In this document: positions 9,958 to 34,992 of the stretch, piece after piece
How the letters are laid out: each line of letters opens with the position of its first letter
How positions within the stretch are numbered: position 1 is the first letter of the stretch
Notes under the pieces: model-generated
The model's database searches: none
What the model saw: the letters and a program-made list of their open reading frames with translations, nothing else
What the model was told of the DNA's origin: nothing
Program-made: the position numbers and the translations under genes
Assembly (NCBI GenBank): GCA_048213135.1
Contig: PS015452.1
Location: 71,108-109,021 of the forward strand
DNA length: 37,914 nt
From: Reclinomonas americana ATCC 50394
Taxonomy: Eukaryota
Direction: 5' to 3'

Positions 9958-11616
9958 TCATGGATTGTAGGCCGGCGGTGGTGGCAGATAGGTCTGCTGC
10001 TGGTACTGCTGCTGTGGTGGTGGTTGTGGTGGGCAACAACAACAGTAAGTGACCGCCCGATCGCGACTTCTTCGTCGACGACGGGCTCGATATCGATGGC
10101 ATCATCGTGACGCACCGACTGCACGTGCGCCGCGCCATTGTATCCGTTCACCGACACCGCATGCTGGTGCTTCTCCAGACGACTACCCGTACCCGTCGCT
10201 ATCGTCGACGAGGTCGTCTTGACCATGCGGCGTCGTTCCTCGGCCGTCGCGGCAGCATGTCGGCGCCTGTGCGCACCAAAGAGTTTTTCCGATCACTCAC
10301 ATGCATCGTTTGCACTCATCAACACACACAAGGCAGTACGTAACCAGCAGCAGCCGACAAAGTCGAGAATGAGTGTGGCCAGCATGCAGGCGGCCGCCAC
10401 CAGCACTAACCAGTACGCTCGCCGGGCGTCAAAGTCGCCGCGAGCGTCGGTCGGCTGCGACAACGGTGGCAACTGCACGGTGCGCGCGACAGTGTCAGAA
10501 ACGGTGCAGGGCGTGGGCGACAGTTGCCTTGTACTCACCGTCGAGTTGATAAAGTTGGCCGTGTTGTCGTTCAGCTGTCGTCCACCGTACGCAGCTGCCG
10601 CACCCCACACCACGGCCTGCGAGACATCTTTGTCAGCACCACTCTTTCTCTAGATCTCTACCATCACCCCTCTGCAGCACTCACCGTGGATCCAATGCAC
10701 AGGAAGGCCGTCAGCACAGTGAGACTGTTGAACAGCGTGCACAACGGGGTGCCGCAGTCCTTCGTCGCCGCGCCAATGATCAGCACAACGACCGAGATGC
10801 CGGCCAGCACGGTGCCGGCAATGGCGAGAACAGCGGTCGCTGCATCACACACACATGTGAGAGGAGCAGCCCCTGTTGAGGAGAGTGTGTGTGGGGCAAC
10901 GCACCAACTCCGAGATCCCGCACTCGGTTGCATTCATTGTCGCCGCCGACCAGGTCTTTGATTTGCGACACCGCTGCCCCCGTGCCCCTCCCACTGTCAG
11001 AATCAAACACAGAAGAGTGCGGTGGGGAAGGAAGCGCAACGCAACAGCACATGTTGTTGACGGCGCTGTCGGGACCACAAACCCAAGCGAGTCAGTGCTC
11101 CTCACACATGCAAGCATGTCGGCGGCAATACTTACCCGTCGTAGGCGATCAGTTGTGTTGTCGTCACTTGCACTCCGGCTATCGTTGTCCGACGAGCCAC
11201 TGTGCAGAGAAAAAACACACAAATCAGCAGCCCCACCCCACTGTTGCAACTGTGGCGTGCACTCGACCATTCCAGCGCGTCTTCAGCGGCTGTGCCGAGA
11301 TGTCAATCTGTGTGCAAGCACAAGTTGGTTCGAATTCGGTTTCTTCACAGCTTGTAGCAATCGTAACAATGTAATCGTGGACCGTCGCCGGTCCACCGTT
11401 GACGTTGATGGCTGCGAAGAGAGAACGACAAGTCAACCAACATGCAATGGGAGGAATAGCGGATTGGAGGAATTCGAGATCGGAGAATCTTTTTCCTCCC
11501 TCTCGCGCTCAACTTTGCGTGTCGCCGAACCAGTCGCCGATCGCCAGTGCAGCTATCATCAGCGTGCACGCCGCCAGGGCGAAGAAGGTCGCCACCGTGT
11601 ACAGTCGAGACCGCAT
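9958..11616 (-). CDS. Four-transmembrane claudin/amastin/Sur7-like membrane protein, paralog B
   Basis: Same architecture as paralog A, with shared motifs (WFG, PLKxxWN, AYDG, WGAxAxxGxxQxNDN, GxFDA, CC) and several shared intron positions. Predicted end is QQYQQQTYLPPPPAYNP*; the last intron is less certain. Confidence 0.68.
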
Positions 11617-12088: not shown

Positions 12089-14139
12089 TCACGCCTTTTC
12101 TCCTGGTGTGCGCGAGCGAGAGCCCTTCGGGCGATTGCGGGAGCGACTGTTTGATCGTCGGTCCGCCTGCAAAACAGCAAAAACCAAATGAGCCGACACG
12201 CGGACTTACACGCACACACCGGCACAACAAGCGGAAAGAGGACGCAACAGCCGATGCGCGTGCTCTGTCCTGCAGTTCCTGTCGAGTGAGCGGGTGTACC
12301 GTCTCGTCTCCGCTGTCGTCACCCTCCAAGTCGTCGCTGTGGTCACAAAGAAAAAGACAAGCGGTGAGACACATGGAGCGCGGTGTTGCGTGTCAGGTGC
12401 CACTTTGCGTGTTACACGTACCCAGCCGCTGGTGGCTTGATGTCGAGCACCGTGGCACCAAATGGTGTCGATGGTCCCATGCCGAACACGGCGGCACCGA
12501 TAATCGACTGTGATGTGCTGCCAAACTCGGCACTCAGCTCCGGGCCCTGAATGGCCGCGTACAGCTGCAGCAACTCGTTGGCGCGCTGCTCAATAATACC
12601 TACACGCACAAGGGGTTAGTGTTTCGCTGCACACAGTCCTCATCACTTTCTCTTCCAGCTCTCCACTCACCGAGGTATTGCATCATGTTCGAGTCCGTGA
12701 CACCCGAGTCGCCAAGCACCTCTGCCACCGGGCCGAGCTCGCAGCCAATCTCGCGGAAGACGTGCTCGATACCGCCACGCAGACGATCAAGCACCTGCAC
12801 CTGCTCGTCGTGCTTCGACTCGTACTCGGTCGACTTCTCCTCGGCCGCGTTGAGCTTGCCCTCCAGCTCGGCAATGATGCGCTCCTGTTGTGTGTTGGAC
12901 TCGGCGCCCTGGCCCTGAATCTGTGAAATCTCGCCGCGCATCTCGCCAATCTGTGCGGTGGACGGGGATGAGCATCCCAACCACAGCAATCAACAACAAA
13001 ACGTGGGGAGCGAGAGTGACAGTACCTGCTCCTCCAGCTTCTCGATCTCGTTGTTGAGGTCGTTGACGTAGTTGAAGAGCGAGAAGTTTTGCTCCTCGGC
13101 CTGAATAAACTTCTCCACAATGAGGTGCAAGTCGTCGAGATCGGTGGCGTCCTTGATCTTGCGGATGGCCTCCTCGTACTCGTCGACCTTTTCGCGCGTG
13201 ACCTCGTGTGATGCCATTTCCACGGCCTCGTTCCATTGCGCTGAAATGCAACAATGAAGGAAATGTGAGGGAAAGCGGGGGACGGGTGGTGCCGGGGGTG
13301 AGATGCACACCTCGTTGTCCGTGTGCGCCATCCTCCTCTGCCTTGCCGTCGCCAGCCGCCGCGGCGCTCTCCAGCATGCGCAAGTGGGCCTTGCGTTTCC
13401 GATCCTTCTCCATCTCCGTGTCCAGTTCCTAACCATACACACACAGAGTGTGAGCGGGCGCTGCTGCGTTCTGCAAGGCAAGCCAAGCACACTACAGACG
13501 CACCTGGAAGAGTCGATCGAGTTCCTGATTCTCGCGTTCGTATGCCTGCTTCAAGGCCACCAACTCGTTCTGGCACTGATCCCTCTCCTCGTAAGCCACG
13601 TTGCTGCGCTCGATAATCTCCGCCATCTCCTTCTTCTTCTCGTGCAAGTCGCGCTCCAGCTTCTTGTAGATTTCGTCAAACACTTGTCGTTCCGTGCGCA
13701 GGTTATCAATCTCCTCACGCAGTTCGCGATTGCATGCTAGTGCCTCGTTGAACTTGATCAAGCCCTGCATTCACCCCACAATGAGAACCACGACAACAAA
13801 TCGGAGATGGAGAGAGTAAAGTACCTTGTCCAATCGGTTCTCCAGCAACTTGATCTGTCGTTGCACGGCCTCATCGCTCTCCGACGCCTGGTGCACACCG
13901 CCACGCTTGCCCTTCATCTCCTTGATGCGCGCCGCCATGATCTGTGAAGCACAAGAGAGAGAAAGGTGAAGGGTTAGGCGCGCGACTGCATCGCTCACCG
14001 GCTGACCATTCACAAACCTTGATCTGTCGATCCAGATCCTCCAGACGCCGCCGATCCTCGCCGTACTTGCGCGACAACACCTGGAACTGTTGCGATAGCT
14101 GACTGCCGCGCTTGGTGATCTCCACAGTCTCGCGCATGG

Positions 14140-17505: not shown

Positions 17506-18381
17506 NNNNNNNNNNNNNNNNNNNNNNNNNNNNNNNNNNNNNNNNNNNNNNNNNNNNNNNNNNNNNNNNNNNNNNNNNNNNNNNNNNNNNNNNNNNNNNN
17601 NNNNNNNNNNNNNNNNNNNNNNNNNNNNNNNNNNNNNNNNNNNNNNNNNNNNNNNNNNNNNNNNNNNNNNNNNNNNNNNNNNNNNNNNNNNNNNNNNNNN
17701 NNNNNNNNNNNNNNNNNNNNNNNNNNNNNNNNNNNNNNNNNNNNNNNNNNNNNNNNNNNNNNNNNNNNNNNNNNNNNNNNNNNNNNNNNNNNNNNNNNNN
17801 NNNNNNNNNNNNNNNNNNNNNNNNNNNNNNNNNNNNNNNNNNNNNNNNNNNNNNNNNNNNNNNNNNNNNNNNNNNNNNNNNNNNNNNNNNNNNNNNNNNN
17901 NNNNNNNNNNNNNNNNNNNNNNNNNNNNNNNNNNNNNNNNNNNNNNNNNNNNNNNNNNNNNNNNNNNNNNNNNNNNNNNNNNNNNNNNNNNNNNNNNNNN
18001 NNNNNNNNNNNNNNNNNNNNNNNNNNNNNNNNNNNNNNNNNNNNNNNNNNNNNNNNNNNNNNNNNNNNNNNNNNNNNNNNNNNNNNNNNNNNNNNNNNNN
18101 NNNNNNNNNNNNNNNNNNNNNNNNNNNNNNNNNNNNNNNNNNNNNNNNNNNNNNNNNNNNNNNNNNNNNNNNNNNNNNNNNNNNNNNNNNNNNNNNNNNN
18201 NNNNNNNNNNNNNNNNNNNNNNNNNNNNNNNNNNNNNNNNNNNNNNNNNNNNNNNNNNNNNNNNNNNNNNNNNNNNNNNNNNNNNNNNNNNNNNNNNNNN
18301 NNNNNNNNNNNNNNNNNNNNNNNNNNNNNNNNNNNNNNNNNNNNNNNNNNNNNNNNNNNNNNNNNNNNNNNNNNNNNNNNN
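17506..18381. other. Assembly gap (876 N)
   Basis: Run of N. Confidence 1.
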
Positions 18382-25190: not shown

Positions 25191-28100
25191 CTATGAGAGC
25201 ATGGCCACGAGCTTGGAGCGGTCGGCGTCTGACAGCGCGGCGGCTGCGTCCGAGAACTCGGACGGGATTGCCGACTGCAGCGCGCGCACCAGCGACTGCG
25301 TGGCGGCCTTGACGTCGGTCTTGGGCTCCTTCAGCAGCTTCACTGCCATTGGCAGCACTTGCCGCGTCAGTACGCCCGGTCGCTGGCGAGCCACCTCGTC
25401 GATCGAGTCTGCAACGTGCCTCCATCATCAGTCACTGTGCGTTTCCCCTCGCGAGCGCCACACAAAGATTGCTCACCTGCCAGCTTTTGCACCAGCTGCG
25501 CCTTGACCTTCATGTTGCCGTACATGATCTCGTGCACCACATGCGGCGCAATCACCGACGCTTGTGCGGCCGTGAACACGTGGTCAAACACCTCGGTGGC
25601 CTGCGAGCGCACCGCCGGTGTCGACGACGCCATGTTGCTGACGAGTGCTGGCGTGAGGCGATTGAGCACAGGCTCAACCGCGTCGCCAAACGCCGGCACA
25701 ATGCGCTCCAGCGACTGCAGCGCCGCCGCGAGGACTTTCGGATTGGGATCCGACAGACGCGACAACATCGGGTCAAAGGTGGTCACCAGTCGATCCGCCG
25801 TGCGAATGTACTCGGCCTCACTGACCAGCAGCTGCTCCAGTTGTGAGATACCCGACATGCGATCTCGCCAGTCTGCGCGACACCCGTCAGGAAAAAAAAA
25901 ACTAATCACAAAAGAGCGCACAAACACGCACCACTCGACGAAATCGCCGTGTTGATCTCCGGTAGTGCCTCAAAGGCAGACGGCTCGGGTCCTACCGAAG
26001 AGCGACCGGCACGCGATCCGGAGCGAGTGGCTCGCGAAATGGAGCGCACACGAGTGGACGGTGTACCGATTTCGACTGCCACAGCAGTGAGAAACACCAT
26101 GTGGAGAGAGAGAGGGGGAGAGAGGGAGAGGGAGAATAGAGACGTTACCATCCACGGGTGTTCCGTTCGTCTGTCGTGACGTCGGCGTCTCGCGAAGCGG
26201 GCTGCTACGCGGACTCGACTGTGTCTTGCCACTGCCGACACGCTCGCGTGCACTCGGTCGTCGAGGTGGTGGCGGTCCCTGTGACATCGGAGTGAGTGCA
26301 AGTCATCGGGAGGCGGATGCGTTGCGGGGGAGACTGAACACACCGCAATGCCCGACGCCGATCCGGCGGCAGCAGACGGCTGCACGTCGCCTCCACGTAG
26401 CGCAGACTCGCGGAACTTTTCAATCGCATCGGCCTTGAGGTACTGACGCAGGAATTTCTCAAACGCGCTCATGTCGCGATCAAATCTGCAAGCACGAATC
26501 AGCACAAAATCATGGAGACTTGCTTAATCAATCACTGTGTACCCTTGCAGTGCATAGGCTGCGGCCTGCTTGGCGGCATTGCGCGTCTCGGCGGAAGCGT
26601 CGCCCAACATGCGCGACACACCCGACACGAAGCGCTCCGCCTCACGTGATCCGTTCAGTTTGGATCCCTGCGACACATCACGCACGGTTTTTTTGAGTCA
26701 AGCGAACTCTTCTCATCCATCTCACACACACCACGACTCACCATGATCATCGACCAGTGTGCTATCGCGGCGGCGACCTTGGAACGCACGACCGCTGATT
26801 TGTGTTGTGAGTGCGCAAGGAGCGCAGCCAGCGCTGCACCACGGCTACAGTGTTCCACACACGCCAACATTGTCTTTTCCACCTCTTCGATGATGAATTT
26901 GGCGTCGACGGCCTTCTTGAACAGAGCCAACAGCTGAGAGAGAGAGAGAGAGAGAGAGATAGAGCAGAAAATGATCCGTGCGTGTCAGCAACATCGTCCT
27001 CGCAGTCCTCACAGGCGCGCAGAAAGTGAGCGCAACGATATTGTCGAGTTCCACGTCGAGCACCCGTCCCAAATGCTCCACCATGAACGAGAGCGTGCGC
27101 AGCGCATTCTTCGACACGGCCGACCGACCGTTGCCGACTGATTTGAGCAGCACGAGCACCACAGAGTGACTGTAGAAGGAGAAAAAGAATTCGGCAAGCA
27201 ACGATGAGATCACGAGAGCAAGAGAGTGGTGAGAGCGCGAGTGGCACGCAACGCCAGTGGGGAAACAAGCTCCGAATGGTGAACGACGAGGCGGCGCATG
27301 ATATTTAGCGACTCCATTTCCTTGACCCAATCCTCCTGACTGCGTTCCTGGCTCAGCGTGTCGAGTGCAAGCTGTATCACACGCGAAGTGATGAGCAGAA
27401 GGAAAACTGAGAAGACTTGTCGCGATCGACGAACTCGCAAGGCACGATCGGGATTCGGCACCGGCACCACATCCTCCGGCGCCAACTCCTCCACCGGCTT
27501 GGCGCCGAGTTCTGCCACGGCTCGACGATTGACGGCCTTGTTGGCTGCGCAGAGACACAGCAGTGAGCGTACTGTGCGGGTACAGGTGAGAGGCGACTCG
27601 AGCATGACGCACGACTTCTGTAGCTCTCGTTGCGTGCACGTTCGCCACCAAGCGAGTCGCTGTCGCCAGCGTCCATGTCGAACATGGACGACGGTGACAC
27701 GGGCGTGGCCTGATGGCGACTGAGACGACTCTTTGCCGCCGGTGACACCGTGTTGACAGCTACGTGTGTGTTAACAAGTCAGTGACACAAGACTACTAAA
27801 ACCGTGCTCCACTTCAACCGCACGCACATGAACCCTCGCTCTCGGTCGAGTACGACACGGAATCGCTGCCCTTGACGTCAGAGACGCGTGAACCTGCGAG
27901 CACACAACGATGAGCGACCACGGCGACGACATAATAAATATCAGAGTGCAGCGCAGACTACAAACCAGTGCGCCCGTGTCGGCGAACAGGGTGTGGCGAG
28001 TCTTCAATCTCATCCGGCGTATTCCTGCCGCACACACACACACATGTGAGACACACAATACGCAAGAGCCTCAGAAAATCAAGCATGCACAAACCTCGGC

Positions 28101-31100: not shown

Positions 31101-33152
31101 AAGAGTGAGCACAGCGTGCATTTTTTGGAAAAAGGAAAACACCGAGGAACGACCGGCGGCCACTCACCGCCTTGGCCGCAGTGAGGCGATCACGCCAGTT
31201 GGCGCTCTGGCCCTGCACACAGATGCTGTCGGGGAGGAAGCCGAAACGCATCGGCTCCTCTGGCGTACTGAACATGGAAATCGCCACACCCGACGGCGCA
31301 GCCGTGTGCCCGCTCGACGACGACGACGTCGGCGAGTAGGCCGACGACGGAGATGCCGGACCTCGTGCCTGGTAGTGATTGGAAGACGAGGAGCCACTGA
31401 CGGACTGCCGCAGTGCGGGCGCGGAGCCGGCAGGAGGTGCCGGTGGACCGCTGATCGAACTCTGTTTTCATGCGCGGAAAGGAGTGAGGCACTGCGTAAA
31501 ACACACACGTGCGCGCGCACACAGCATCCACAAACCCGCGGCGCCGCCTTGAGCATCACTTCGACATCGTTCAGCAACGCGACAGCCTAATGCGCTCAAC
31601 GAGATGAGCAACACAAATCGCACACCACTGCCTTTCTCTCTCCCTCTCTCATCGCATGACTGTACCTTGCGGGCGGCAGCCTGCACTGTGCCGACAGCGT
31701 CACCCTCCAACGGCGAGAGAGCATTCCGCAGAGCACCAATGTCGATCCGCTCGACCGGTAATCTCGGCGGTGCCATGCCCGACGATCCCGATGTGGGCGA
31801 GGCGCTCGACACCACCACTGCGGCGGCCATGGCGCGGCCGGAGACAGAGGCGCGTGGTCGCATTGGACCCGCCTCCTCCGCCGCCGACACCACAGTGGCC
31901 AGCCACACTCCCAGCGCCTCGGCGCCGTGCAAGCGACCGGCAATGGTCGACGAGCGGAGACAAATGCGAAACACACGATCCATCACAGTCTGCGGCTTCT
32001 CCGCGCGATGCATGTAGACAGCCAGCGTCTCCACCGCAGCAGCACGCACAGCCAGTCGATCGTGAGCCAAGGCGCGCACACACGAGTCGAGAGTCCGCAT
32101 CAAGGCCGACTCCGCACTCTGCTCCCGTAATCTCCAGTGCTCCATAATCAGTCGCATGGTCGTCAGCGTCTTGTGCGTCACCATCCACGAGTCACCGCCG
32201 GCGGCGCCCGGACGCAGTGCCGCATCCAGCGCATCCACTAACCTGCTGCACTCGCCGTTCGCCGACAAGCACGTCACCAGCACCTGTCGATCACTCAACA
32301 GCGTCTCCAGTCCCTCCAATCGCCCCATCACACTGCCACTCTCTAGTTGCTCCAGCAGCGCCAGGTGCGTCGGCAAATCACTAATCCCGGCCGCCGCCGA
32401 CGCCGACAGCGCCGTGGTCAGTGAGAGATTGCGCGGAGAGGATGCGGTGGACGACGAAGACGACGATTGCGCGCCACTAGAACCCTTGCGCTGATGTGCC
32501 GGCGACGGTGCTGCCACTGAGTGTGTGACAGAGAGTGTGAGATATCGAAACGGGTGCAGTTGCGCGCCATGGCACGACCCCCGAGACACACACGCTTTCT
32601 CTCTGTCTGTCGATACACACACACATGTGCGCGCGTGCGGGCGTACACAGACACACATATATACAACACGCGAGACACACACACACACAGAGGTGGGAGA
32701 CACAGAGAGTGATGATGGCCATGACACGCACCGCCACTCTTGCTCTTGCCCCCAGACGGCACCCGCGAGCGCGGCAGTGGTGGTTTCGCCGAGGGTAGCC
32801 GCTTACTCGGCACCGCCTCCTCTTCCTCCTCATCATCCTCCTCAAACGACGAGTACTCCTCCTCATCATCGTCCTCCTCCTCATCGTCATCGTCAACAGC
32901 CACTGCTCTCTTCACCGCTGGCATGGGCTTGCGCACGACCACCGCTTCTTCTTCGTCTTCCTCGTCGTCTTCGTCTTCGTCTTCTTCTTCTTCTTCTTCA
33001 TCGTCGTCGTCGTCTTCCTCTTCCTCATCGTCGTCTTCATCGTCGTCGTCGTCCTCATCATCGTCGTCATCGTCGTCGTCCTCATCGCGGCGCACAGGCG
33101 GCGGTTGAGGCACAGACATGCGCCGCAGAGTGGCGCGCGTCAGTGGATCCAT
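25191..33152 (-). CDS. TOGARAM1: TOG-array ciliary microtubule regulator (crescerin/TOGARAM/CHE-12 family), more than 25 exons
   Basis: Two N-terminal and two C-terminal HEAT/TOG blocks flank a long disordered linker. Motifs include NWRDRLTA, LLGDSNYQI, EDWVKEMESLNIMRRL, GRSAVSKNA and DWRDRMSGI...RLSDPNPKV. The linker introns I traced splice in phase. Confidence 0.85.
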
Positions 33153-33481
33153 TCACACACACACACGCTGACAGCACTGATTGACTGACAACGGTCAATG
33201 TCGTCTGTGCACCAATCGACAAGAAACACACAGAGACAGTGAGTGAGTGAGTGGGTGAGATGGGATGGGTGGTGGTGGGAGGCTGAAAAGCACGGCGAGA
33301 GACAGGTGAGCTGATGATACGCACCTCACAAACACAAACGCAACCGGTTGTTGAGTGGACAAATATTGTGAGTGGACAAATACTTCGCGTGACTCATCAA
33401 TACCCGCCACTTTAGGGTCTGCGAACCATCGCGCTTCGCAATGGGAATGATGGTGGTCAATGCTAGACCTGCATCGCACAA

Positions 33482-33743
33482 GTTAACCAGGCCGCAGCGC
33501 GCGCAACTTGATCATGAGTGACGTCGACAAAAATCTCGAGTTGCGCATGCACTCCGGATCCGAGCAATTCAAGGCGGTTCGAATTCCCGGGCCCCGTGAT
33601 CAGCCACAGCCTCTGGCAATCCCTAGAAATCAGCTCATCACAGCGCACGTGATTGACCAATACTGCACATGTAATGCGCTGCGCGCGGTGATCGATATCA
33701 TGATCATATGATCTCGACTTGTACATGTGGATCCGGAGCTCCG
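33482..33743. other. Intergenic tract of densely overlapping short palindromes
   Basis: About 30 hexamer palindromes counted by eye, including ten overlapping pairs (see findings). Confidence 0.9.
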
Positions 33744-34145
33744 AGAGCGAACACACACACACACACACAAGAAACCTGCTGCAGCCTCAAGATTGGTGTC
33801 TGTGTTGATGTTTTGGATACGGTTGAACTTGGTCATCAAGACTTGTTTGTTGGTGAATGAATTTGTTGTTGTTGTCTCGCGATCGCGAGATTGATCGTAT
33901 GGCATCAAAGGTTAGCGAGCGTGCGTGGTGGTCATCGTCATCCGGACTTAACACACACTGTCGCTGCGTTAACAGTGCGAATGCAAGTGACGGGGCACAG
34001 AAGGGTGTACTATTTGGGTAAAAAAACACACAGACATCCAGGAGTGGAAGAAAAGAGCAACGAGAAAATGAGATGTGAGTGGCAGAGGAAACGACAAGGT
34101 ATGCTGGTGCACAGGCGCGTCGCACTCCTCGACGCCACCACCCAT

Positions 34146-34992
34146 CTATTCGAGGAGGCTAGCACGCAGGCGCGCCAGCTCACCCTCCAGCTCACGGAGC
34201 TCGCCCTCCACGCGAGCCAGTTCGGTCCGCGCGTCCTCGCCAGAGCGCGCCCGCCACTCTGCAGCCTGCAAGCGACGCTCCGCCATACGAGCGTCGATAT
34301 CCACCATCTGCTGGACAAGCTTGTGTTGCCACTTGTGGAAAGAGTGATAAGCACACACTTCGATACAACAACAAGCGGAAGAAGACATCGCAGCGCTCAC
34401 TCACCAGCTTGCGCTCACTCAGTTCAGCGCGACTTCGAAGCTCACTCACTTCAGCGCGATGCTCCGCACGTTCAGCGCGCAGCTCTGCACGTTCAGCGCG
34501 CAGCTCTGCTTCCACAAACTTGTGATTAGCTTCGCGCAGTTGTGCCTCGTGCTCGAGCTGCTGCACACGCGTTTCAGCCTCGCGCAGTCGCTGCTGCAGC
34601 TGCTCGCACCCGTCGGTCTTCTCCGGCTGTTCGAATGCGTCGGTCTTCTCCGCGGCTGGCTCCTCGTGCACTGCTCCAGCCTCGACCAGTTGCTCCGCGT
34701 GCACCACGATATCCGACTTGCTCGGGCTCAGCTTGTATTCCTCTCCATGATCTCGCTGCTGCTGCTGCTGCTGCTCGTGGAGCTGCTGCTGCTGCTCGTG
34801 GAGCTGCCGCTGCAGCTCGTGGAGTTGCTGATCTCGCTCGCGGATCTGCTTCTCCAGCTCGCGGAGCTGCTCGCGGAGCTGCTGTATCTCAAGAGCCTGC
34901 AGGTACCGATTCTCTGCGTCCTGTTCCTCCTGAATTGCTAATTAGAATCACATGCACACACAGAGACAGAGAGAGATAGATGCACAATCCAT
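34146..34992 (-). CDS. Uncharacterised coiled-coil protein with internal repeats (QLHEQQQ, AELRAER)
   Basis: Model MDSIQEEQDAENRYLQALEIQQLREQLRELEKQ...ELARLRASLLE*, with introns 34938-34985 and ~34333-34404. The start is uncertain; upstream exons at ~35175-35313 are possible. Confidence 0.6.

Follow-up and report, generated by a model that had tools for sequence, protein, structure and literature searches.

Genomic context of the locus

The palindrome array described here lies at 33482–33743 of the window, that is, of the whole stretch of 37,914 nucleotides that was analyzed. It sits mid-way within a spacer of ∼1 kb (33153–34145), in the middle of the contig and between two intact tandem genes on the minus strand. 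The spacer is non-coding, and codon-phase GC periodicity was absent from about 33150 to 34050. One neighbor is a TOG-domain gene, which runs on the minus strand from the ATG at 33150–33152 down to about 25370. Its probable first coding exon (32421–33152) contains an acidic D/E repeat and would join the downstream TOG exons on the same strand. Its assignment as a TOG-domain protein is sound on the basis of domain matches. The ORF at 25370–25969 matched CEP104-like_TOG (25.8 bits, cutoff 24.3) and HEAT in Pfam, with XMAP215_CLASP_TOG below its cutoff, and the ORF at 31471–32802 was associated with CLASP_N/TOG clusters (Atlas features). PDB entry 5dn7 (FAM179B) matched the TOG gene only at an E-value of 0.02. 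Relatives of the 444-aa TOG ORF were not found among longer proteins, and 175 pattern matches in metagenome contigs yielded no confirmed related TOG locus. The preliminary description had placed the tract 330–590 bp upstream of the start of TOGARAM. The distance is correct when measured from the minus-strand ATG (330–591 bp), and so is the assignment to TOG-domain proteins, with TOGARAM as a candidate name only. On the other side of the spacer, translation and codon-phase GC point to the probable last exon of a coiled-coil gene (34146–34340, minus strand, TAG at 34146–34148); no homolog was found.

The surrounding DNA is eukaryotic and intron-bearing. An ODAD1 gene at ∼12.6–13.6 kb contains a GT...CAG intron of ∼72 nt, removal of which restores continuity with a homolog that is 60–61% identical. 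Matches of ODAD1 in a collection of 5.8 billion proteins were scattered over protist groups, the best being 61% identical. We detected no transposon in the window, and the flanks of a run of N (17506–18381) were ordinary host sequence with no sign of a cassette.

Two reading frames are open through the tract: frame +2 contains a 65-codon ORF beginning with ATG (33514–33711), and frame −2 is open throughout. The tract was rejected as coding DNA, as neither of these frames matched Pfam at E-values up to 1 and the spacer has no codon periodicity. It was also rejected as an RNA gene: a single match to a miRNA family was sub-threshold (20.2 bits, threshold 51), none was obtained at the gathering score, and no tRNA was found. 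The GC content is 0.54 in the tract and about 0.58 in the window, and the tract does not qualify as a CpG island. The observed/expected ratio of CpG is 1.25 in the tract, 0.88 in its flanks and 1.08 in the window. The commonest dinucleotides in the tract are AT (25), GC (25) and CG (24), and the rarest is TA (7).

Outside the array, the remaining 731 bp of the spacer contain 10 hexamer palindromes (13.7 per kb against a background of 17 per kb). An (AC)9.5 microsatellite detected by TRF (33751–33769) starts 8 nt beyond the right end of the array, and CA runs like it are present in other host spacers. A perfect 16-bp palindrome, TCTCGCGATCGCGAGA (33875–33890), is located 132 nt from the array. 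Among the 63 palindromes of at least 10 bp in the window, it is the longest and the only one above 12 bp.

Content and layout of the palindrome array

Within its 262 bp, the tract contains 32 perfect hexamer palindromes representing 23 distinct words and ten nonamers of the form XYZ-revcomp-XYZ (all counted by script). Among longer palindromes, there are six 8-mers, two 10-mers and one 12-mer. The preliminary description had reported about 30 hexamer palindromes and ten such nonamers; all ten were recovered at their positions, and the words that it named (GTTAAC, CTCGAG, CACGTG, GATCATATGATC and CGGAGCTCCG) are all present. It also stated that symmetry recurs rather than one motif; the 23 words share no recurring core. 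The hexamer palindromes occupy 140 of the 262 bases and are grouped in 15 clusters, leaving 122 bases of filler. From left to right, the fillers between clusters are 9, 4, 2, 6, 1, 2, 16, 2, 43, 15, 8, 3, 9 and 0 nt long.

The clusters form two blocks. The left block (33497–33602) comprises GCGCGCGC, TGATCATGA, GACGTCGAC, CTCGAG, TGCGCATGC, TCCGGATCC, TTCGAATTCCCGGGCCC and TGATCA, with fillers of 1–16 nt. It is separated by a 43-nt gap free of hexamer palindromes (33603–33645) from the right block (33646–33741), which comprises CACGTG, ACATGT, GCGCGCG, ATCGATATCATGATCATATG (five palindromes in 20 nt), TGTACATGT and GGATCCGGAGCTC. Several words are used repeatedly, even inside a single block: TGATCA and GCGCGC occur three times each, and GGATCC, TCCGGA, TCATGA and ACATGT twice each. 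Outside GC runs, five words occur more than once.

Alignment of the two blocks revealed a weak direct repeat in which palindromes are swapped for other palindromes (score 20, compared with 13.1±2.1 in shuffles), and this score was equalled in 12 of 1000 shuffles. The first internal-repeat score was equalled by 35 of 2000 dinucleotide shuffles and by 67–143 of 2000 block shuffles. In addition, of 87 pairs of adjacent segments taken from other parts of the window, 21 scored as high as the block-to-block alignment. Because block-preserving shuffles and these other segment pairs reach such scores, the argument is soft, and internal duplication of the blocks is suggestive only.

Departure from chance

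The whole window contains 657 hexamer palindromes (17 per kb), which corresponds on average to 4.44 in 262 bp (s.d. 2.87). The next-best non-overlapping places of the same length contain 13, 12 and 12 of them, compared with 32 in the tract. The number of distinct words per 262 bp is 23 in the tract and 12 at the next-best place. The tract also ranks first in the window at scales of 40, 60 and 100 bp. Secondary peaks at 10045, 20418 and 25146 correspond to ordinary sequence with GC runs. The preliminary description had noticed nothing similar elsewhere in the window, and not even a weak version of the array occurs at another place in these 38 kb.

In 5000 dinucleotide-preserving shuffles of the tract, the number of hexamer palindromes averaged 5.95 (s.d. 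2.36) and never exceeded 15. The same shuffles gave a mean of 0.149 nonamers (maximum 4, observed 10) and a mean of 22.0 palindromic 4-mers (maximum 37, observed 47). In 30 Mb of sequence simulated with a third-order Markov model trained on the remainder of the window, the richest 262 bp contained 20 hexamer palindromes, and the tail of the distribution dropped ∼2.5-fold for each additional palindrome. A random fluctuation in GC-rich sequence without CpG depletion might be suggested by the CpG ratio of the window (1.08) and by a background slightly over 1/64, but both the shuffles and the Markov simulation refute chance as the origin of the array.

Word-level signature of the array

Of all the results, the properties of the words themselves proved the most informative. 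Gap-free dyads with 3-nt arms number 32 in the tract, where the rest of the window predicts 4.3, whereas dyads with gaps of 1–12 nt are at background (2–7 compared with ∼4). The fraction of 2-bp symmetric centers that extend to 4 bp is 0.58 (background 0.25), and the strongest step is that from 4 to 6 bp (0.68, background 0.29). From 6 to 8 bp the fraction is 0.19 (background 0.29); symmetry ends at 6 bp. Near-palindromes, in which two of three pairs are complementary, number 33 against 35 expected from background, and therefore no halo of decayed sites surrounds the perfect ones. Ten of the 31 possible neighbor positions at +3 are filled, each forming a nonamer (binomial P=0.003 given the density).

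The choice of words does not follow that of the host. Between word usage in the tract and that in the other 36 kb, the Spearman correlation was 0.20 (P=0.11), and a uniform model fitted the array words better than host usage (log-likelihood −133 and −138, respectively). Fourteen of the 32 array palindromes contain only two G/C, compared with 19% in the host. The commonest host palindromes (CTGCAG, CAGCTG, GTGCAC and GCCGGC) are missing from the tract, and some array words are scarce in the other 36 kb (CCCGGG 0, CATATG 1, TCCGGA 2 and GTTAAC 2 occurrences). The occurrence of 23 distinct words among 32 fits sampling with replacement (25.3 under the uniform model, 95% range 22–29). With respect to the filler, its GC content (0.516) and AT skew (+0.22) equal those of the left flank (0.514 and +0.21), and its GC skew is −0.14, compared with +0.11 and +0.15 in the two flanks. 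In the host window, 617 hexamer palindromes were observed and 598–628 expected. Such palindromes are not avoided, and therefore there is no sign that the host lives under restriction pressure.

Folding and phasing were also analyzed. As single-stranded DNA, the tract folds at −41.8 kcal/mol, compared with −40.3±3.8 kcal/mol for shuffles (z=−0.39), and 64 of 200 shuffles fold as well. No spacing periodicity or helical phasing of the palindromes was found, the observed maximum being reached by 3846 of 5000 permutations; the left block had seemed to follow an 11-bp register, which was rejected on the same count. The preliminary description had offered a scar of repeated fold-back or template-switch synthesis as one origin. 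This proposal found no support, as gapped dyads are at background, arms do not rise above 3 nt and the fold is ordinary; a fold-back or hairpin origin was excluded because loops, longer or variable arms and a stable fold were not seen. Another of its suggestions, a platform of symmetric sites, survives only insofar as the unit is an uninterrupted 6-bp palindrome and fails for CpG or ApT dinucleotides and for longer dimer sites. Taken together, the constraint acts on uninterrupted 6-bp palindromes as duplex, which is the signature of restriction-site-type words. To our knowledge, the only readers of arbitrary 6-bp palindromes are type IIP restriction and modification enzymes and the designers of cloning sites, and we know of no eukaryotic reader of this kind.

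Searches for related sequences

We searched for the array elsewhere by blastn with 11-base words, using positions 33440–33790 as the query. Among plasmids (PLSDB), 55 records were obtained, all of them chance matches of 29 nt (E-value 0.09), and none covered at least 80% of the query. The phage collection gave seven chance matches with E-values of at least 1, and 20,395 chromosome and plasmid records of Escherichia coli gave no match. One 25-mer of the tract was not found as an exact match in contigs of viruses, prokaryotic genomes or metagenomes, nor in the text of open-access papers. A description of such an array was not found in the literature (open-access full text). With respect to the proposal that the tract is part of a small element, the window revealed neither terminal inverted repeats nor target duplications, nor was a second copy found in it, and the searches gave no match elsewhere.

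Comparison with known systems

Compared by description, synthetic polylinkers and superpolylinkers resemble the array in several respects: they consist of dense 6-bp type IIP words, they use half-overlapping XYZ-revcomp-XYZ pairs, and they show no symmetry past 6 bp and no decayed copies. However, the sites of a polylinker are unique, whereas only 23 of the 32 array palindromes are distinct. The array also differs in its fillers of up to 43 nt, in lacking many classic sites, in having no vector match in the searched collections and in its place in the middle of a spacer, where the neighboring genes, those of an intron-bearing protist, are intact. CpG islands, considered as clusters of rare-cutter sites, resemble the array in their promoter-proximal CpG-containing palindromes (CpG ratio of the array 1.25). 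In contrast, the ratio is already 1.08 for the whole window, 14 of the 32 array palindromes contain only two G/C, and the excess in the array is at the level of 6-mers and not of dinucleotides.

Restriction-site avoidance in prokaryotic viruses shares with the array the orthodox type II word as unit of selection (Rusinov et al., 2018; PMC6286503). The array differs in showing enrichment and in belonging to another domain of life, and the host window around it is without avoidance. The excision footprints of hAT, Transib, RAG and MULE elements (PMC5499845) resemble the array in being gap-free short palindromes derived from the flank, and the succession of target-site duplication (TSD), P nucleotides and TSD equals the nonamer. 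Such footprints are single and variable in length, whereas the array would represent 10 events of the same format in 260 bp. For each of the nearest described systems, there is at least one defining feature that was tested and that the array lacks.

Origin of the array

Our main reading, to which we assign a probability of roughly 40%, is that the array is native to the chromosome and is read by two-fold-symmetric readers with a 6-bp footprint. It would then be a genuine chromosomal array of restriction-site-type words, located in the spacer near the promoter of a ciliary gene of the TOG-domain (TOGARAM-like) type and presumably kept by selection. The array may work in duplex form rather than as a hairpin, and could offer many docking sites to two-fold-symmetric readers with 3-bp half-sites. 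Type-II-like enzymes (methyltransferases or endonucleases) would be candidate readers, as would a family of homodimeric factors. Through such readers the spacer might acquire a particular chromatin or methylation state, which in turn could influence how the downstream gene is expressed or insulate the two tandem genes from each other.

Several observations were counted in favor of a native array. It lies in the middle of the contig, and the non-coding spacer around it is flanked by two intact genes of the same strand; its filler equals the left flank in GC content and AT skew; and 23 distinct words among 32, together with fillers of up to 43 nt, would be odd for a designed cloning site. The plasmid, phage, E. 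coli, contig and paper-text searches gave no match. The real 72-nt introns and the best ODAD1 relative at 61% identity point to a poorly sampled lineage, so that the organism is probably no standard laboratory model. The longest perfect palindrome of the window lies 132 nt off in the same spacer, in host-like sequence, and the two blocks form a weak direct repeat (12 of 1000 shuffles). Counted against it were the lack of an excess of decayed sites, which would be expected of young or designed DNA more than of an element that evolves, and the uniform-like word usage, which extends to words seldom or never found in the other 36 kb. The same holds for the lack of palindrome avoidance in the host window (617 compared with 598–628), the solitary occurrence of the array in 38 kb, the marginal internal repeat, the GC skew of the filler, which is unlike that of the flanks, and the fact that, as noted above, we know of no eukaryotic reader of arbitrary 6-bp palindromes.

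A near-equal rival, which we consider quite possible, is that the array is of non-biological origin and has no function: the remnants of a polylinker or superpolylinker of a transformation construct that integrated in the sequenced strain, a contaminant joined during assembly, or DNA constructed in some other way. The six-cutter signature (exactly 6 bp, gap-free and without decayed copies), the uniform word usage with host-rare words, the uniqueness of the array in the window and the deviating GC skew of the filler all fit such DNA. So does the packing through 3-nt overlaps (10 of 31 neighbors at +3, binomial P=0.003). XYZ-revcomp-XYZ is the most compact placement of two palindromes, and superpolylinker vectors used it. 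On the other hand, words recur even in one block, and the fillers of 15, 16 and 43 nt have host-like GC content and AT skew. Ten classic cloning sites (AAGCTT, GGTACC, CTGCAG, TCTAGA, ACTAGT, GCTAGC, CCATGG, AGATCT, CCGCGG and ACGCGT) are all missing from the tract, and its 8-bp palindromes are not known to match a rare-cutter site. Inspection by eye of positions 33200–34400 revealed nothing in the flanks that belonged to a vector, a marker or a primer site, and both neighboring genes are intact. The PLSDB, phage, E. coli, contig and paper-text searches count against this origin as well. The lineage is without a close sequenced relative, and because the best ODAD1 match is only 61% identical, a transformed laboratory strain is probably not involved. 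With regard to synthetic linker contamination, which the preliminary description had also considered, the sequence signature fits and a vector match is absent from the plasmid, phage, E. coli and contig collections.

A further reading, which we regard as improbable, takes the array as a eukaryotic 'natural polylinker', a selected promoter array showing many type II restriction or modification words. It could act as a bait, or as a methylation or cleavage sensor, for enzymes of the restriction-modification type from large DNA viruses or bacterial symbionts; viral enzymes of this type are known from chloroviruses. The remaining readings are unlikely even when taken together.

One of these, also improbable, is an origin by mutation, in which each nonamer would be the scar left when a transposon with a 3-bp target duplication inserted and was excised once, or the scar of another hairpin-capped break. 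A flank hairpin opened 3 nt off its tip would place P nucleotides, in the form of a 3-nt inverted copy, between both copies of the target. Hairpins that form on flanking DNA, are opened by host enzymes and leave footprints on end joining have been described in hAT, Transib, RAG1 and a MULE (PMC5499845). A TSD, an inverted copy and a second TSD give the form of the ten nonamers exactly, the words are diverse, as expected of target-derived sequence, and the position is promoter-proximal. When the form was generalized as a word w, the first k bases of its reverse complement and w again, 10 cases were found for k=3 (0.16 expected) and 2 for k=2 (0.17 expected). However, the k=0 form was found once (11.6 expected), and three of the five cases with k=1 are GC runs. 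About 10 events in 260 bp would be required, each adding exactly 3 bases without loss, and 12 of the 32 palindromes lie outside nonamers. Moreover, the other 731 bp of the spacer are not enriched (13.7 compared with 17 per kb), and we saw no transposon in the window.

We consider it still less probable that the tract is an ordinary cis-regulatory module with sites for known dimeric factors (bZIP ACGT cores, bHLH E-boxes and a CCAAT box), possibly combined with symmetric CpG or ApT methylation, which corresponds to the reading that the preliminary description had put first. Its position 330–591 bp upstream of the ATG would suit such a module, and the tract includes GACGTC, CACGTG, CATATG and CCAAT, with TGACTCA at 33390–33396; we take these words to be bZIP, bHLH and CCAAT motifs. 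The prevalence of the self-complementary dinucleotides AT, GC and CG, the rarity of TA and the CpG ratio (1.25 compared with 0.88 in the flanks) point in the same direction. Against it, the 23 words form no recurrent motif family, and helical phasing is absent (3846 of 5000 permutations). Most sites of dimeric factors are 8–14 bp long or gapped, whereas symmetry in the array ends at 6 bp and gapped dyads are at background. Neighboring factor sites would be mutually exclusive as a consequence of the 3-nt overlaps. Methylation requires only 2-bp symmetry, and the extension of 4-mers to 6-mers at 0.68 argues against a methylation platform. Ordinary factor sites or CpG/ApT methylation therefore fit poorly as an explanation.

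Finally, capture of a foreign array, that is, horizontal transfer of a phage-, bacterium- or virus-type piece into the spacer, seems very improbable: the word usage is not host-like, but the context is eukaryotic and nuclear, with introns, Pfam revealed no reverse transcriptase, phage or viral gene among the 146 ORFs of at least 120 aa, and phage and viral collections gave no DNA match.

Implications

If the array is laboratory DNA, the public assembly is engineered or contaminated, which would be worth flagging to its curators. If, on the other hand, it is native to the chromosome, it would represent a new kind of element, the first eukaryotic chromosomal one that is conserved only in the two-fold symmetry of many 6-bp words, and it would imply a new class of readers, or a new conflict with restriction-type enzymes, in a protist.

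Open frames and neighboring genes

The palindrome array (positions 33482–33743), which contains 32 perfect hexamer palindromes in 262 bp, is crossed by open frames. A 65-codon ORF beginning with ATG (33514–33711, plus strand) spans most of it, and frame -2 has no stop over its full length. Since neither Pfam matches nor codon periodicity could be detected in the open frames through the array, these frames are probably due to chance.

In the TOG gene, a TOG-domain gene on the minus strand, the probable first coding exon opens with a long acidic Asp/Glu repeat (32927–33100, minus strand), which is encoded by runs of GAC, GAA, GAT and GAG codons and for which TRF reported periods of 3–30 nt. A gene for the outer dynein arm docking protein ODAD1 was found on the minus strand at 12603–13675, and an intron of about 72 nt was confirmed in it. 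Thus, two cilium-related genes (ODAD1 and the TOG gene) are located within 20 kb. The count of hexamer palindromes per 262-bp sliding window revealed no palindrome array in the ODAD1 region. An intergenic run of 876 N (17506–18381), which may represent a gap in the assembly or sequence that was withheld, is flanked on either side by sequence that appears to be of ordinary host type.

Background symmetry and additional motifs

Outside the array, 25 w-revcomp(w)-w nonamers (two hexamer palindromes overlapping at offset +3) were identified in about 37 kb, compared with an expectation of roughly 9 at a rate of 1/4096 per position. The most frequent spacing between background palindromes was likewise offset +3 (23/617). 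Composition or codon usage may underlie this mild genome-wide tendency.

The interval from the array to the TOG start contains a tandem 17-nt direct repeat (TGAGTGGACAAATATTG / TGAGTGGACAAATACTT, 33352–33385), followed by the AP-1/GCN4-like motif TGACTCA (33390–33396) and by a TGCGAA-N9-TTCGCA dyad (33420–33440). In addition, the longest palindrome of the window, the perfect 16-bp TCTCGCGATCGCGAGA (33875–33890; all others were 12 bp or shorter), lies 132 nt from the array within the same non-coding spacer. Its core 9-mer, TCGCGATCG, occurs in 31 copies in the window with at most one mismatch, whereas shuffled sequences contained 17.1 ± 4.7 copies by the same definition and none of 100 shuffles attained 31. 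The 9-mer, or the 16-bp palindrome itself, may be a promoter-type motif of the host.
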